Positions 25,931 through 31,542 of a DNA stretch of 32,924 bases are shown here, piece by piece. Where the stretch lies: NCBI GenBank assembly GCA_964564965.1, contig CAZMDT010000001.1, positions 13,237-46,160 of the forward strand, read 5' to 3'. The DNA comes from an uncultured Planctomycetaceae bacterium. GTDB lineage: Bacteria > Planctomycetota > Phycisphaerae > SM23-33. Below the pieces are notes generated by a model that ran no database searches, was not told the origin of the DNA, and worked only from the letters and a program-made list of their open reading frames with translations. How positions within the stretch are numbered: the first letter of the stretch is position 1; the number at the start of each line of letters is the position of its first letter. Both the position numbers and the translations under genes were made by a program.

Positions 25931-26722
25931 TCAGCGGTTGTCTTCGCGGCGGTCTTCGCGGCCGTCGGCGTCCGCGGCGTCGCCACCCGCCTTCCCGTCC
26001 GGATGGCAGCGGGCGCACGGCGGGCGGGCGCCCTTGCCCACGAACAGCAGCGGAAAGACGATGTCGCTCGTGCAGCACGGCAGCAGGACCGCGAGAAACA
26101 GAAACACGCCGAGCTGCGCCGCCAGCAGCGGCGTCAGTTGATCGCGCACGGCCATCATCATGTGAAACAGCGACGCCGCCGTGCTCATCAGCACGTGCCC
26201 GGCGTGCGGGAACGTCGTCACCGGCCAGACCATCGCCAGCGCCACCCCGCCGATCGCCGCGGGAAACACCAGGTACCACTCCTCGATGAACCCCGCGTGC
26301 ACGTGCGCGGCGGGCAGGTGGTGCAGCACCTCGCCGAGGTACGGGATCAGGCTGTCGCTGACCGTGGCGATGCCGATGGAGCCGACCATGCCGATCAGCA
26401 GCGTCGCCCACCAGCGCCCCCGCGCGAGCCGGCGGTACAGCGCCGCCGTCACCATCGCGCTGAGGAAGACGTGCCCGGGATGGAAGATGGCGAACAGCAC
26501 CCCCGCGAGGCCGTGGAGGCCGGCCTCGTGCTCGTGGCCGGCGGGCTCCTCGTGGTCGGCGGCGCCGGGACGCACCGGTTGGGTGGCGCCCTCGTGCGGC
26601 GCGTGCGCGGCGTGCGGGCCCTGAAGGTGCAGCATCAGCATCATCACCGCGATGCCGATGATCGTCCCGGCCAGCGTGAACGGCGCGTGGTGCCTCAGCT
26701 CGTGGAGGATGCGCCTCAGCAT
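25931..26722 (-). CDS. His/Cys-rich polytopic membrane protein, putative metal-ion transporter
   Basis: ORF 25931..27013, trimmed to ATG 26722, which is preceded by GGAGG with a 5-6-nt spacer. It has about 6 TM helices, a His-rich loop (HLQGPHAAHAPHEG...DHEEPAGHEHEAGLH), intramembrane His residues and a C-terminal CARCH motif. The family was not identified with certainty. Confidence 0.55.
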   Translation of the reverse strand: MLRRILHELRHHAPFTLAGTIIGIAVMMLMLHLQGPHAAHAPHEGATQPVRPGAADHEEPAGHEHEAGLHGLAGVLFAIFHPGHVFLSAMVTAALYRRLARGRWWATLLIGMVGSIGIATVSDSLIPYLGEVLHHLPAAHVHAGFIEEWYLVFPAAIGGVALAMVWPVTTFPHAGHVLMSTAASLFHMMMAVRDQLTPLLAAQLGVFLFLAVLLPCCTSDIVFPLLFVGKGARPPCARCHPDGKAGGDAADADGREDRREDNR

Positions 26723-27006
26723 GCCGACCTCCTCTGCCGCCGCCCGCCCGGGCCGCGATGGCACACCAGGTGGACCTCGTGGCACTTCGGGCACTCCCGG
26801 GCCGGGTGGCTCGCCGAGAACCGCGACCAGTGCTCCCACTGCTTCGGCGACAGCCGGCCCGTGCCGCGGCACAGCGGGCACGTCTGCCCCAGCGCCGACA
26901 GGATCGCCTCGCGGATGAACTCGGAGCGGTTGGGGACGCCGCGCATGGCCGCCACCAGCGCCGGGGAGGCCTTGAAGGTGATCATCTCGCTGTTCTGCCC
27001 AGGCAT
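26716..27006 (-). CDS. Ribbon-helix-helix (CopG/NikR-like) regulator fused to a 4-Cys zinc ribbon
   Basis: ORF 26716..27006. ATG 27006 is preceded by GGGAGGTG. The RHH signature is ITFKASPALVAAMRGVPNRSEFIREAILSAL. It is followed by CPLCRGTG...CPKCHEVHLVC. The stop overlaps the downstream membrane-protein start by 7 nt. Confidence 0.65.
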   Translation of the reverse strand: MPGQNSEMITFKASPALVAAMRGVPNRSEFIREAILSALGQTCPLCRGTGRLSPKQWEHWSRFSASHPARECPKCHEVHLVCHRGPGGRRQRRSAC

Positions 27007-27116: not shown

Positions 27117-27881
27117 TCATCGCGGGGCGGCGAGGCGCTCGGCGAGGGCGGCGTTGCCGAGGAGCCTGGCGAGGTCGGCGGGGGTGCGGCGTGCGGCGTC
27201 CGCAGCCCCCCGCGAGGCCCCATGGGCCAGCAGCCAGTCCACCATGGCCGGGTCGCCGGCGCGGACGGCGGCGTGCAGCGGCGTGCTGCCGTGCCGGTCC
27301 GGTCGCGACACGTCGGCCCCGCCGGCCAGCAGCGCCTCGGCGGGGGCCGGGTCGCCCGATTCCGCCGCCACGTGCATCGGCGTCCGCCCACGCGCGTCGG
27401 GCCGGTTCGCCTCGGCGCCCTTGGCCAGCAGCAGGCGGACCATGTCGGCATCGCGCCGGCTGGCGGCCCAATGCAGGGCGGTCCAGCCGGTTTCGGCGTC
27501 GCCGCGGTTGAGGTCGGCCCCGTGGCGGGCGAGCAGCTCGACGGCGTCGAGCGCGCCGCTCATGGCGGCGTCGTGGACCATGACGAAGCCCACCTCGTCC
27601 GGGGCGTCGGGGTCGGCGCCCTTGGCGAGGGCCGCACTGATGGTGGCGCAAAGCTCCGATTGCCCGGCCGCGGCGCCTTCGGCGGCGGGCGCGGCGGGAG
27701 GCGGCCCCGTTCGGTCCGAAGCCCGGGCATCAGGGACGGGCCGCGTGGCCGGCGCTTCGTCCGGACGGTCACTGGAGCGATCGGGCTCGTCCTTGCCGCA
27801 GCCCGCCGCCAGCAGGCACGCCACGAGCGGCACGGCGATCAGGAAACGTCGCATGGGGTTCTCCGTGGTGCGTGGGGTCAT
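27117..27881 (-). CDS. Ankyrin-repeat lipoprotein
   Basis: ORF 27117..28574, trimmed to ATG 27881, which overlaps the upstream stop in an ATGA arrangement. An alternative ATG lies at 27854. The N-terminus ..MRRFLIAVPLVACLLAAGCGKD has a lipobox. It has at least four ankyrin repeats, for example GWTALHWAASRRDADMVRLLLAKGAEANRPDARGRTPMHVAAESGDPAPAEALLAGGADVSRPDRHGSTPLHAAVRAGDPAMVDWLLAHGA. Confidence 0.85.
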   Translation of the reverse strand: MTPRTTENPMRRFLIAVPLVACLLAAGCGKDEPDRSSDRPDEAPATRPVPDARASDRTGPPPAAPAAEGAAAGQSELCATISAALAKGADPDAPDEVGFVMVHDAAMSGALDAVELLARHGADLNRGDAETGWTALHWAASRRDADMVRLLLAKGAEANRPDARGRTPMHVAAESGDPAPAEALLAGGADVSRPDRHGSTPLHAAVRAGDPAMVDWLLAHGASRGAADAARRTPADLARLLGNAALAERLAAPR

Positions 27882-30800
27882 CGGCCCAGCCCCTTGCCGT
27901 AGCTGGCGATCATGTCGCGGAGGTCCAGGACCACCTCGGGAATATCCTTCCCGCCGGTGAGCAGCCGCACCTGTTCGTTGGCGACGCCCGGCTGCGCGGG
28001 GGCCCGCTCCAGGGCCGCGGCGATCTGCTTCCAGTGCCGGTGATAGCGGGCGAACCGGGCGCCCGCCTGCGGGGATCGCTTGGCGGCCTCCTCGATCAGC
28101 GGGAGCAGCTTGGTGTTGATGTCCTTGGCCATGCCTCGGGCGGATTCGACCATGCGGCTGACGTGCAGCAGGTCGGGGTTGTGCATCATCTCGGCGACCT
28201 TGTAGGCGGTGACGTCGCCGGCCTGCCCGGCCTTCCTGCTCGCCAGTTGCCCGATGTTCACGTGCCGGATCTTCTCCGTGCCGAGCCAGGCGAGGTCGGT
28301 ATAGATTTCCGGGTGGGCGCTGGTGGTGAGGGTCTCGAAAGACCGTCGTGCGCTCCGGCCGGTGACGGCCTGGTAGGCGGCTTCCCAGGCCGCCTGGGCC
28401 TCGGCCTGGAGCTGCACCTGGCTGACGCGCAGGCCGTCCTTCGTGAAGGGGATTTCCGTGAGCAGGCGGCTTTTCTCCGTGGCCGAGTCGAGGTAGCGGC
28501 GCATCAGACCGATGTCGTAGTCCATGCCGACGGTGCCGGCGCTCGAGGCGTTGCGGAACTCCCGCATGACCCATTGGCTCGCCTCATCGTAGCCGCGCTC
28601 GTTCATCAACTGGCGGAAGCGGGCCTGCACCTGCTCGTGCACCTGGCCGAGGCGCTGGTTGTAGTCGGCGATCAGCTCGGCGTATTTCGGGTCGCGGGCG
28701 GCCGACTTCAGGATCAGCTTGCCCTCGTACGTGGAGTGCAGCATCGTGGCCTTGTCGCGGAGGGCGCGCTCCATAGCCTGAATCTCGGCGCCGCTGGCGC
28801 CGAACTCCATCGCCCGCTGGTACTCCTTGTAGGCCCGGTGATAGTCGTCCACCAGGTGCTTGCTGTCCTCCAGGGCGATGCGGTAGCGGGCCTCCTCAAA
28901 CGCCTTCTTCACGTCCGGCTTGCTGCCCGCCGGCGGATGTTCCGCCGCGAACAGCTTCCCCACCCCGTACTCCAGCCCCTTCAGGGCCACGAACGTCGTC
29001 GCCCCACGCTCCAGCGCGCCCACCCAGCCCTTCTGCCCGCTGAGCCAGCCGCCCTTCTCGTAGCCCTCCATGGCCTGCGCCGCCGCCATCCCGGCCACGT
29101 TCGTCCACATCAGCGCATGCTTCGTGCCCTCGTACAGACGGTTGCCGAGCCCGCCCTCGGCGCCGGCGAAGCCGACGCACCCCTCGAAGACGGGCATCAC
29201 CCAGCCGCTGGCCCCCATCGTGGCCACGAACATCTCCGCCTCGGCCACCGTCTTGACGAGCTGGGCGTACCGCAGGTTCTGCTCGGCGTCCAGGGCCTTC
29301 TCCGTCTCGGTGGCCGAGACGTTCTCCCAGTGGCCCTGGACCTTCTCGAAGACGACGTGGGCGATCTTCCGCATCTTTCTGACGTCGCCCCAGGTGTGCG
29401 CGTCCTTCATGTGGTGCCCGACGAAGGCCGCCAGCTTCTCGCGCTCGTCTCGCGGGGCCAGGCGCGTCAGCCGCTGAACGCCCGGGGCATAGCGGCGAAT
29501 CTGCGAGTCGGGGTCCATGCGGTCGCGGACCTGCTGCACGAAGCGGGCGGCGTACCATTCGTCGATCGGCGTGCGGGTGTGGACGATCTCGCCGGTCTGA
29601 AGCTCGCGAATGCGGTCCATCTCGGCGAAGCGCGTGTGCTGGGCGTGCAGCAGCGTGTGGAGCAGGCGCTCGCGGGTGGCCAGGTTCTTCGCGGCGGCCA
29701 GCTCGTTGCGCCACTTGGCGATGTTGGCCTCGCAGATCCGGATGTTGGCCTCGTGGAAGGCGGCCATCTCCTGCCGGGCCTTGGCGTCCTCGGCGGCGCG
29801 GGCGGCGTCCTGCGGGGCGGGGGGCCTGGCGGGCGTGCCGTAGCGGTCCGCCTGGGCGGACAGGTCCAGCGGCACCACCGTGCCGCCCACCGGGTCGAAC
29901 GTGAACTCCCACGTCAGCTTGAGCTGGGCGGCGTTCTCGACGGCGTCCTCGCTGCCGGGCTTCCGGCCGGGCATGGGGGCCTCGTTGTTCATGCGCTGCT
30001 TCACGGTCAGCGCGGCCACGATCTTCCAGCCCTCGCCGGGCTTCCTGTTGTCCCAGGCCGGGTCCCCCTTGCCGTGGGCGCGCTCGTACACCACGCGCCA
30101 CCAGCCCGGGTCGAAGCGGAACTGAATCTGGGCGGCCGCCTCGAAGCGGGGCGTCTGGGCCAGGTACACCCTGCGCTTGACGGCGAAGTTCTCATACCCG
30201 CCGTAGGCGCCGCAGGGCTTGCCGTCGGGGGCGTAGAGGACCGCGCTGAACCCGTGCTCGATGATGCGCCCGCCGTGGGGCGTCTCCTTCTTCGGGTCGT
30301 CGTTGCCCAGGAAGGGCTTGCCGTCGCGCTGGTCGAGGTCCTCGATGAAGAACGGAATGTGCAGGAAGGTGGACTTCGACACGCGCGGGTCGGGCACGTA
30401 GGTGACCCCCGGCGGAACCTGGGCCCACACCAGGCGGATGCGGCTCTGCATGAAGCCGTTGCGCGTCACCGGCTTCCGGACGGTCTTGAAGCGCACCACG
30501 CCGTCAGGGTCCCGGTCCATGCCGGCGTCCACGCTGATGGTGTACGTGTGCCGCCACAGGCAGCGAAGGTCGCTGGTGACCGAGGTGCCGTCCTCGACCG
30601 GCTTCCAGCTCCACGTATCGGCCCAGGCGTCGTTGCCGGATTCCACCAGGAACCGGCCGACGTGGGGCTTGGCGATCCATTCCACTTTGTGCCCGGTGAG
30701 CACCCACGCCGGGCCGGAGGGCTTCTCGAGCGCTCTGATCGACTCCTCGTGCTGCTGCCGGCGCCTGGCGCGGCAGCGGGTGGGGTCGGGCGGATCGCCC

Positions 30801-31297
30801 AGTTCCCTGATCCGCTCGCCCGCCGCGGCCATGCGGCCCAGGAGGTGGCCGAGTTGCTGCTTCTTCACCCACGCCACGGACAGCGCCTCCTCCGCGCTGA
30901 CGGCGTCCTGAATCGCCTGATACGCCAGCGCCTCGCGGTAGGCGGCATCGAACTGCGGCGCGACGATGGACGCCTGACCGCGCGTGGCCAGGAACTCCTC
31001 CACCGGCGGCAGCAAGGCGTTGAGGTAGCTCACCAGTCCGGGACAGGGGTAGCTGTAGGCCGGGGCCCAGGCCTTGTCGATCGCCGCCTCCTGCTCCGCC
31101 GTCAGCGGCGCGTAGACGAGCTTCACGCCCTGGTGGGCCGTGCTCACCGCCTCGCGGTAGCGGACCGGGTCGAGCGAGGACACGTCGGGCCAGCCGTCGG
31201 CAGCGGCGCCCGTCGGCTCCGCCCCCCCCTGGCCCCACGCCGCCGCCGTCGCCAGAGCGATGCACAACGCCACGCATGCCAGGGGGCCGTGTTTCAT
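27878..31297 (-). CDS. Large (1139 aa) secreted protein of unknown function
   Basis: ORF 27878..31411, trimmed to ATG 31297 (MKHGPLACVALCIALATAAAWGQ, a signal peptide), which is preceded by AAGGAGA. Codon usage is consistent with neighbouring genes and G+C is high at third positions. I recognise no catalytic or family motif. A beta-rich middle is followed by a long helical, charged C-terminal half with one Gly/Ala-rich hydrophobic core. Confidence 0.75.
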   Translation of the reverse strand: MKHGPLACVALCIALATAAAWGQGGAEPTGAAADGWPDVSSLDPVRYREAVSTAHQGVKLVYAPLTAEQEAAIDKAWAPAYSYPCPGLVSYLNALLPPVEEFLATRGQASIVAPQFDAAYREALAYQAIQDAVSAEEALSVAWVKKQQLGHLLGRMAAAGERIRELGDPPDPTRCRARRRQQHEESIRALEKPSGPAWVLTGHKVEWIAKPHVGRFLVESGNDAWADTWSWKPVEDGTSVTSDLRCLWRHTYTISVDAGMDRDPDGVVRFKTVRKPVTRNGFMQSRIRLVWAQVPPGVTYVPDPRVSKSTFLHIPFFIEDLDQRDGKPFLGNDDPKKETPHGGRIIEHGFSAVLYAPDGKPCGAYGGYENFAVKRRVYLAQTPRFEAAAQIQFRFDPGWWRVVYERAHGKGDPAWDNRKPGEGWKIVAALTVKQRMNNEAPMPGRKPGSEDAVENAAQLKLTWEFTFDPVGGTVVPLDLSAQADRYGTPARPPAPQDAARAAEDAKARQEMAAFHEANIRICEANIAKWRNELAAAKNLATRERLLHTLLHAQHTRFAEMDRIRELQTGEIVHTRTPIDEWYAARFVQQVRDRMDPDSQIRRYAPGVQRLTRLAPRDEREKLAAFVGHHMKDAHTWGDVRKMRKIAHVVFEKVQGHWENVSATETEKALDAEQNLRYAQLVKTVAEAEMFVATMGASGWVMPVFEGCVGFAGAEGGLGNRLYEGTKHALMWTNVAGMAAAQAMEGYEKGGWLSGQKGWVGALERGATTFVALKGLEYGVGKLFAAEHPPAGSKPDVKKAFEEARYRIALEDSKHLVDDYHRAYKEYQRAMEFGASGAEIQAMERALRDKATMLHSTYEGKLILKSAARDPKYAELIADYNQRLGQVHEQVQARFRQLMNERGYDEASQWVMREFRNASSAGTVGMDYDIGLMRRYLDSATEKSRLLTEIPFTKDGLRVSQVQLQAEAQAAWEAAYQAVTGRSARRSFETLTTSAHPEIYTDLAWLGTEKIRHVNIGQLASRKAGQAGDVTAYKVAEMMHNPDLLHVSRMVESARGMAKDINTKLLPLIEEAAKRSPQAGARFARYHRHWKQIAAALERAPAQPGVANEQVRLLTGGKDIPEVVLDLRDMIASYGKGLGR

Positions 31298-31383
31298 GAG
31301 CGATCTCCTTCGGGCCGCGGCGCCAGGGGCGGCTCCGGCGGGCTGGCTCGCCCGGACGGGCTCCGCGGCGGTCCGCCAAGATG

Positions 31384-31411
31384 ATTGTACCCTCCGCCCC
31401 GCACGCGGCAA
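31384..31411 (-). promoter_or_regulatory. sigma70-like promoter of the large-secreted-protein / ankyrin lipoprotein pair
   Basis: Minus strand reads TTGCCG (31411-31406), a 16-nt spacer, then TACAAT (31389-31384). It lies about 85 nt upstream of ATG 31297. The hexamers and spacing are the same as the promoter at 18862-18889. Confidence 0.4.
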
Positions 31412-31514: not shown

Positions 31515-31542
31515 TTGAGATCGCCAACGCACGTGGTAGGAT
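31515..31542 (+). promoter_or_regulatory. Candidate sigma70-like promoter of the beta-propeller/PKD gene
   Basis: TTGAGA (31515-31520), a 16-nt spacer, then TAGGAT (31537-31542). It lies about 55 nt upstream of GTG 31599. Confidence 0.3.

Follow-up and report, generated by a model that had tools for sequence, protein, structure and literature searches.

A large Sec-exported protein encoded beside an ankyrin-repeat lipoprotein in an uncultured planctomycete belongs to a widespread bacterial family and may be an enzyme docked by its solenoid partner

Ankyrin-repeat proteins are known as the exported partners of bacterial enzymes from two immunity or self-protection systems. The Tle6 lipases are inhibited in the periplasm by Tli, whose six ankyrin (ANK) repeats cup the lipase (PMC11470151), and a further report describes Tli as either activating or neutralising its lipase depending on location (PMC10294624). 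In Bdellovibrio bacteriovorus, the ankyrin protein Bd3460 provides self-protection against the DD-endopeptidases Bd3459 and Bd0816 (PMC4686830). Investigation of a 32,924-nt stretch of DNA from an uncultured Planctomycetaceae bacterium (contig CAZMDT010000001.1; the whole stretch, with a G+C content of about 70%, is referred to below as the window) revealed a minus-strand gene for a large exported protein of 1139 aa (P0001; 27878–31297) followed by a gene for an ankyrin-repeat lipoprotein (P0002; 27117–27881). A first-pass annotation of this locus had pointed to the use of ankyrin proteins in bacterial effector/immunity pairs, which the Tle6/Tli and Bd3460 systems bear out. The comparative analysis presented here places P0001 in a large family outside known kinds, whose conserved C-terminal domain contains a set of invariant charged residues, and it leads us to favour, tentatively, an enzyme-like exported protein that its solenoid partner docks.

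The locus is similar to that of Tle6 and Tli in Enterobacter cloacae in that the gene for an exported, all-helical ankyrin-repeat lipoprotein comes directly after the effector gene, with a solenoid partner and a periplasmic setting. However, Tle6 belongs to the alpha/beta-hydrolase lipases, has a serine nucleophile and is delivered by a type VI secretion system (T6SS), whereas P0001 has a Sec signal peptide and contains neither a lipase domain nor any other Pfam domain. No lipase family was matched in Pfam or NCBIfam at E ≤ 1, and GxSxG is absent from the invariant and near-invariant columns of the family alignment, though S919 is near-invariant. Regarding secretion, neither TssC (PF05943) nor Hcp (PF05638) was found in the source genome, which is 88% complete, no T6SS genes were present among the neighbours examined in the window or at the related loci, and none of the RHS, LXG, haemagglutinin-repeat or PAAR-type trafficking modules was recognised in P0001 using Pfam and NCBIfam. 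P0002 differs from Tli in having about five repeats and a similarity to ANK sequences that is generic only. The Bd3459/Bd3460 pair is alike in combining a Sec-exported enzyme with an adjacent exported ankyrin protein that binds it, an arrangement that needs no contact-dependent secretion system. The Bdellovibrio enzymes, however, are PBP4-type peptidases, while P0001 matches no peptidase family in Pfam or NCBIfam and has no peptidase match by sequence in the PDB; most members of the P0001 family also lack an ankyrin neighbour, unlike Bd3459/Bd3460. We know of no predatory lifestyle among the carriers of the family, in contrast to Bdellovibrio.

P0001 had been regarded as an orphan in the first-pass annotation, a view that can no longer be maintained. 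A word-indexed search detected 13 full-length homologues with 31–68% identity over 97–100% of the protein, the named sources of which are metagenome-assembled genomes (MAGs) of Phycisphaerae and other Planctomycetota and one Syntrophorhabdaceae MAG. A profile of these homologues, searched against 1.84 billion representatives of clusters at 50% identity, matched 568 clusters at E ≤ 1e-3, 374 of them at E ≤ 1e-30, and the family spans at least 10 phyla. A second homologue search with a 49-sequence alignment gave 7 matches, its search words being drawn from the first 500 residues, which are variable. Scanning one genome per GTDB species with a 12-sequence alignment identified 61 loci in Planctomycetota, Armatimonadota, Thermodesulfobacteriota, Acidobacteriota, Verrucomicrobiota, Pseudomonadota, Bacillota/Limnochordia, Methylomirabilota, Synergistia and Spirochaetes, with the cultured carriers Desulfacinum infernum DSM 9756, Thauera sp. 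WH-2, Advenella alkanexedens, Ectothiorhodospira shaposhnikovii, Paludibaculum fermentans and Orrella marina. Members are 1000–2500 aa long, and a signal-like hydrophobic N-terminus is present in 137 of the 168 full-length sequences. Within the phylum of the window, the family was detected in only three of 401 genomes, with a single copy in the source genome. In a tree of the C-terminal domain, an Acidobacteriota member is sister to a Pirellulales member and an Armatimonadota member groups with members from Pseudomonadota and Thermodesulfobacteriota; this topology is at odds with taxonomy and therefore points to horizontal transfer. An origin on mobile elements was rejected, since tblastn searches of 72,556 plasmids and 50,697 phage records gave no match. 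Two divergent copies were found in each of three MAGs, one of Acidobacteriota ELA516 and two of Opitutaceae (loci L040 and L041, L051 and L063, L052 and L075); the two copies lie in different clades of the tree, which suggests repeated acquisition rather than recent duplication.

The open reading frame (ORF) of P0001 extends from an ATG at 31297 to a stop codon at 27878–27880, and its G+C content at third codon positions, 0.93, matches that of the other real genes of the window. The N-terminus, MKHGPLACVALCIALATAAAWGQ, is signal-like and contains the peak hydrophobicity of the whole protein, with a signal peptide assigned from this hydrophobic stretch to aa 1–22 (MKHGPLACVALCIALATAAAWG; 31232–31297, minus strand). 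AlphaFold2 models were obtained for the full-length protein (14-sequence alignment, pLDDT 73) and for the C-terminal domain, aa 495–1139 (47 sequences, pLDDT 85.7). The full-length model predicts helices over residues 44–187, a beta-rich region over 197–468 and helices from 495 onward, and nearly all the profile matches listed hit two stretches, an N-terminal one (profile positions of about 40–200) and a C-terminal one (about 500–1154). The N-terminal helical domain (aa ~35–190; 30728–31195, minus strand) ends in G-D-P-P-D-P, which includes the invariant P170, and is a separate match stretch in most of the 150 representatives listed. The beta-rich middle (aa ~197–470; 29888–30709, minus strand), with its modelled strands between residues 197 and 468, is variable: it is conserved within the clade of the window only, and other members have PKD or other unrelated sequence at this position. 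Modules recognised by Pfam in the relatives comprise PKD, WSC, DM9, F5/8-C and PPC, which bind glycans or proteins, some of them in the middle region and some N-terminal.

The C-terminal domain of about 640 aa (aa 495–1139; 27881–29815, minus strand) defines the family. Its model predicts helices of up to 57 residues and a small beta region at aa ~910–992. A Gly/Ala-rich, moderately hydrophobic helical segment (aa ~688–790; 28928–29236, minus strand), modelled with lower confidence at aa ~700–790, has a G+A content of 34%, a maximum 19-residue hydropathy of 1.24 and the near-invariant residues G709 and Y746. The motif E-F-R-N-A-S-S-A-G-T-V-G-M-D-Y-D-I-G-L-M (aa 913–932; 28502–28561, minus strand), in which D926 and D928 are invariant and N916 and S919 near-invariant, is modelled as a strand-turn-strand, the strands corresponding to positions 416–419 and 433–438 of the C-domain model. 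In an alignment of 49 divergent sequences with a mean column identity of 18%, the invariant columns were P170, D561, G569, K860, D926, D928, E997, K1033, R1054 and K1058, while R575, R602, D638, N916, S919, T991, Y999, D1001, Q1025, E1051 and K1063 were near-invariant. The charged set of D561, K860, the DxD pair, E997, K1033 and K1058 showed no variation in a second, independent set of 36 sequences either and is complete in P0001, the seed of the family (D561, K860, D926, D928, E997, K1033 and K1058). The invariance of charged residues at such divergence suggests a catalytic or ligand-binding site.

Regarding known families, the earlier observation that P0001 has no recognisable domain was borne out by Pfam and NCBIfam, and PADLOC and PHROGs likewise gave no match. 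Searches of the PDB by sequence and with two profiles found nothing under E = 0.048. Remote homology had been proposed as a check on the first annotation; Foldseek searches with the predicted structures assigned no known family or fold. The best match of the full-length model in the PDB, pT26-6p (E = 0.019, TM-score 0.08–0.15), and the best matches of the C-domain model in the PDB (alpha-catenin, E = 0.06, TM-score 0.11) and in BFVD (E = 0.035) were rejected as non-significant. The motif RNASSAGTVGMDYD / EFRNASSAGTVGMDYDIGLM, with strands on either side, recalls the hG[GS]...DxD core of Pol-beta nucleotidyltransferases, but an assignment to these enzymes from RN..S..G...MDxD was rejected: 139 family sub-domains aligned by hhalign with an MNT-type profile, built from 17 PF01909 matches in related genomes, gave a probability of 0.05%, and no nucleotidyltransferase was found by Pfam or in the Foldseek results. 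Since no relative is detectable among described families or solved folds, the P0001 family is rated as lying outside known kinds, though a more remote relative may exist, and the ankyrin protein is rated as ordinary.

The ankyrin-repeat lipoprotein named in the first-pass annotation was readily recognised. P0002 matches Ank_2 (4.7e-59) and Ank (1.5e-29), each in four stretches, and about five consensus-type repeats occupy aa ~70–250 (27132–27674, minus strand); the top matches in the PDB are ankyrins and DARPins. A lipobox-like L-A-A-G-C (27798–27812, minus strand) lies in the context ...VACLLAAG-C-GKDE, and the cysteine, preceded by G, is kept in five of six orthologous partners, in keeping with a predicted lipoprotein. 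The protein would have 254 aa if translated from the ATG at 27881 and 245 aa from the ATG at 27854. Translational coupling had been proposed from the ATGA at 27878–27881, in which the large gene's stop codon shares bases with the earliest ATG available to the ankyrin gene. The overlap is present in the sequence, but the coupling is doubtful: the ATG at 27854, nine codons inside the frame, has a GGAG upstream with a 6-nt spacer and would give a short basic MRR... n-region as in the orthologues (MHRLLIL..., MNTRRWL...), and for these reasons it is the likelier start. It would put a 24-nt gap between the two genes of the window. At related loci the large gene and the ankyrin gene are spaced by 21–149 nt, so that the operon layout is conserved and the ATGA coupling probably is not.

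A same-strand ankyrin gene lies directly 3' of the large gene in the window and at the related loci L002 (68% identity to P0001), L003/L004, L006, L007, L008, L010, L020, L068 and L054; it is absent downstream at L011 (55% identity) and L009, and the L005 locus ends too early to be scored. In the C-domain tree, a well-supported clade of nine members including the window has the ankyrin gene in eight, and both members of a distant, likewise well-supported sister pair, L054 (Acidobacteriota) and L068 (Pirellulales), have it as well. The partners within the main clade are orthologous, and their pairwise identities co-vary with those of the C-terminal domain (r = 0.81), the partner diverging faster. 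The window and its closest relative (68%) are syntenic for the pair alone, and the remaining neighbours differ. These results bear out the export of both products proposed earlier and show the gene pair to be a conserved unit. A search of the 400 other genomes of the phylum gave no orphan copy of the partner at orthologue level (248 bits in the source genome against at most 131). The partner at L054 (L054:7989-9359; Acidobacteriota MAG JAKPXO010000138.1), whose GTG start codon comes immediately after the large gene's stop, consists of an FHA domain (8e-20), a transmembrane (TM) helix and ankyrin repeats; it would be an inner-membrane protein with a cytoplasmic, phosphothreonine-binding FHA domain and periplasmic ankyrin repeats. 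An ankyrin-repeat ORF is also found about 1.7 kb upstream of the family member in an Opitutaceae MAG (L052:3-1070) and was not counted as adjacent; that member itself has two N-terminal F5/8 type C domains.

Members with and without the ankyrin gene differ in their N-terminal extensions. In all ten ankyrin-adjacent members the N-terminal domain begins directly after the signal peptide, whereas 34 of the 37 other members have an extension of 88–540 aa. Among the 37 extensions scanned, TPR arrays were present in 15, F5/8-C in two and DM9 in one; an independent set of 36 representatives had TPR in 12 and HEAT in one, and long HEAT arrays occur in further members. L074, the nearest outgroup to the L054/L068 pair, has TPR in cis. 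This pattern is suggestive of a complementarity between ankyrin in trans and TPR in cis. Periplasmic TPR-scaffolded envelope proteins include LpoA and the AlgK/PelB/BcsC-type TPR modules of polysaccharide export. The likeness is that an alpha-solenoid docks a working domain at the envelope, and TPR occurs in at least a third of the P0001 family; the difference is that no similarity in sequence or fold was detected (AlgK, Foldseek E = 5.8) and that the locus lacks the context of a synthase or export operon.

Thus, we tentatively put first the reading that a solenoid partner docks the exported, enzyme-like P0001, the locus being an autonomous two-gene module. The first gene would encode a Sec-exported protein of three parts: a helical domain for docking at the N-terminus, a beta-rich middle that is exchangeable and binds ligands, and a C-terminal domain in which D561, K860, D926-x-D928, E997, K1033, R1054 and K1058 may form a conserved working site. 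This site would most likely be a catalytic or ligand-binding centre that depends on metal or phosphate and acts on an envelope or extracellular polymer. The second gene would encode a membrane-tethered ankyrin solenoid that binds the first product in the same compartment and positions it at the membrane, doing in trans what the N-terminal TPR/HEAT arrays may do in cis elsewhere in the family. Physical binding, the docking role, the catalytic activity and the substrate are what we infer, and several observations weigh against this reading. The homology and fold searches were all negative, and neither an activity nor a fold or substrate is assignable. Many members have neither TPR nor ankyrin, and the Armatimonadota gene is monocistronic. 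The complementarity of the two solenoids cannot reach significance, because there are only three independent contrasts, and ANK and TPR differ in fold, so that equal roles would be an analogy. Finally, the periplasmic ankyrin proteins of known function, Tli and Bd3460, are inhibitors.

The last point leads to the alternative of toxin–immunity or self-protection, in which a secreted lytic or antibacterial enzyme crosses the periplasm and is inhibited there by the ankyrin lipoprotein. The first-pass annotation had offered a toxin with its immunity protein and a scaffold with its partner as the two possibilities. An adaptor or anchor fits the data better than an antidote; self-protection is still live as one of the two main options, and we rank it, as a possible but somewhat doubtful explanation, slightly behind the docked enzyme and ahead of the scaffold and membrane-active alternatives considered below. 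It draws on the order of an effector gene and a small exported partner gene, their close spacing and co-inheritance, the compartment shared by the two exported products, the catalytic-looking invariant residues, and the precedents of Tli with Tle6 (PMC11470151) and Bd3460 (PMC4686830). The patchy distribution in three of 401 phylum genomes and the conflict between tree and taxonomy recall accessory or conflict genes, the small exported or membrane neighbours in other clades could be alternative immunity proteins, and the copy in Orrella is situated amid toxin-antitoxin and defence genes. However, an adaptor or anchor is preferred because most members have no candidate immunity gene, one well-sampled member being monocistronic, because neither TssC and Hcp nor a trafficking domain was recognised, and because the ankyrin gene occurs where the N-terminal extension is missing. 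A solenoid fused in cis (TPR/HEAT) cannot be an antidote, the FHA-TM-ANK partner fits an anchor and is ill-suited as an antidote, orphan copies of the partner were not found in the 400 other phylum genomes, and P0002 lacks similarity specific to Tli or Bd3460. Conservation of the C-terminus together with a variable middle also argues for an anchor and is the reverse of what polymorphic toxins show. In the latter, a conserved N-terminal trafficking region precedes variable C-terminal toxin tips; the P0001 family resembles them in having a small gene after that of a large, secreted multidomain protein and in a patchy distribution shaped by horizontal transfer, but conserves the C-terminal ~640 aa and exchanges the middle. 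Conservation of the pair across genomes, on which the toxin–immunity proposal had been made to depend, is thus mixed: the pair is kept in two clades (10 loci), while family-wide most homologues have no adjacent ankyrin gene, among them one clade with 34 of the 54 tree rows in which it never occurs, and some are monocistronic, an outcome named beforehand as speaking against it. Docking and self-protection are not exclusive, because Tli is reported both to activate and to neutralise its lipase, according to location (PMC10294624).

Two further alternatives were considered. As an envelope scaffold or adhesin without catalysis, P0001 would organise periplasmic or surface components while the ankyrin lipoprotein keeps it at the membrane. 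The all-helical bundle of the top, non-significant fold match (alpha-catenin), the recurrence of binding modules and TPR/HEAT arrays in the family and the membrane anchoring of one partner are in line with this, but a pure scaffold would not usually keep seven charged residues invariant at about 18% identity, a core envelope component would not be expected to be as rare and patchy as this family, and no partner genes are common to the clades, so that we regard a scaffold as unlikely. The least probable explanation, in our view a very unlikely one, is a membrane-active or pore-forming protein, in which the C-domain bundles would shield the Gly/Ala-rich helices (aa ~688–790) until these insert in a target or outer membrane, with the ankyrin protein restraining the soluble form. 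That segment is the sole hydrophobic stretch rich in small residues within long charged helices, the model consists of elongated helical bundles, and the Foldseek results include NheA, leukocidins and TcA-type chains. These matches are, however, non-significant (E 0.4–8, TM-score < 0.15), conserved E, K and R residues interrupt the segment, its hydropathy peak of 1.24 over 19 residues is below that of a transmembrane hairpin, and the charged invariant residues lie mostly outside it. An assignment to the alpha-pore-forming toxins (ClyA/Nhe/Hbl, colicin) was likewise rejected, with NheA at E = 7.8, nothing below 0.06, and the same hydropathy value and conserved charges.

Going beyond the docked-enzyme reading, the C-terminal domain could represent a new enzyme fold that defines widespread Sec-exported envelope or extracellular effectors governed by solenoids in activity or placement, which may be TPR/HEAT in cis and the ankyrin lipoprotein or the FHA-TM-ankyrin protein in trans; in the clade of the window, the ankyrin partner may then both anchor and restrain the enzyme. 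We consider this wider proposal possible at best. A family of at least 568 clusters (50% identity) has been missed by Pfam, NCBIfam, PADLOC and PHROGs, and its core domain has a confident model without a structural relative in the PDB or BFVD. The invariant charged residues suggest an activity in the bacterial envelope or exterior, and the pattern of ankyrin in trans versus TPR in cis points to the domain to be used in binding tests, for which the cultured carriers in Thauera, Advenella, Orrella and Ectothiorhodospira, as well as Desulfacinum infernum DSM 9756 and Paludibaculum fermentans, open experimental access. If the genes are a true toxin/self-protection pair, they would form a third, Sec-dependent class beside the two known ankyrin-based immunity systems.

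Other neighbours of the family differ between clades. In Alcaligenaceae, an upstream gene for a secreted 335-aa protein overlaps the start codon of the family member; the overlapping gene in Orrella encodes a secreted protein of 325 aa that is conserved in Advenella too. In Verrucomicrobiota a protein with four TM helices is encoded upstream. In Syntrophales, a downstream secreted protein has a small N-terminal module in common with the large protein; this module, K-M-x-I-F-F-K-D-G-x-x-Q...I-x-K-I-E-Y-Q, follows the signal peptide (L005:8001-8324, L025:4105-5526 and L032:7924-8874; Syntrophales/Smithellaceae), and an F5/8 type C domain is present besides in one of these downstream partners. 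The Orrella marina member (L017:1-10004, corresponding to CP028901.1, 28355-38358) adjoins genes for HigB/HTH, RelE, TacA, GmrSD_N and HEPN_RiboL-PSP, surroundings that look like a toxin-antitoxin and defence island.

The sequence elements described in the first-pass annotation for the large gene, namely an ORF of 1139 aa with a signal-like N-terminus, a ribosome-binding site and a promoter-like site, are all present. The Shine-Dalgarno-like GAAGGAG (31305–31311, minus strand) is 7 nt ahead of the ATG at 31297, and TTGCCG-N16-TACAAT (31384–31411, minus strand) matches the consensus at nine of 12 positions; two promoter-like sites were seen in the 5-kb region against 0.2 expected from shuffles. 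The site is a consensus match only, and its role as a promoter is putative. A divergent gene (31515/31599–32924, plus strand) with a promoter-like site at 31515–31542 extends past the edge of the window and has only sub-threshold Pfam matches, to PKD_4 (1.3e-3, 19 bits, cut-off 27) and PD40 (9.6e-3, 16 bits, cut-off 21). On the 3' side of the ankyrin gene, a gene at 26716–27006 (minus strand) encodes a 96-aa protein of the ribbon-helix-helix type (RHH_1, 3.4e-4) that contains a CxxC...CxxC zinc ribbon; this gene overlaps one at 25931–26722 (minus strand) for a His-rich multi-pass membrane protein without a Pfam match; neither gene is kept beside the pair in relatives. The 1170-aa Arg/Gly/Pro/His-rich ORF opposite P0001 (27872–31384, plus strand) is a high-GC shadow of the real gene. 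An apparent downstream partner of ~820–860 aa in Desulfobacterota was dropped for being such a shadow frame of a convergent gene, and an 822-aa off-frame ORF of the same Arg/Gly/Pro/His-rich composition (L031:8027-10495, plus strand) mimicked a conserved partner in the clustering of neighbours.

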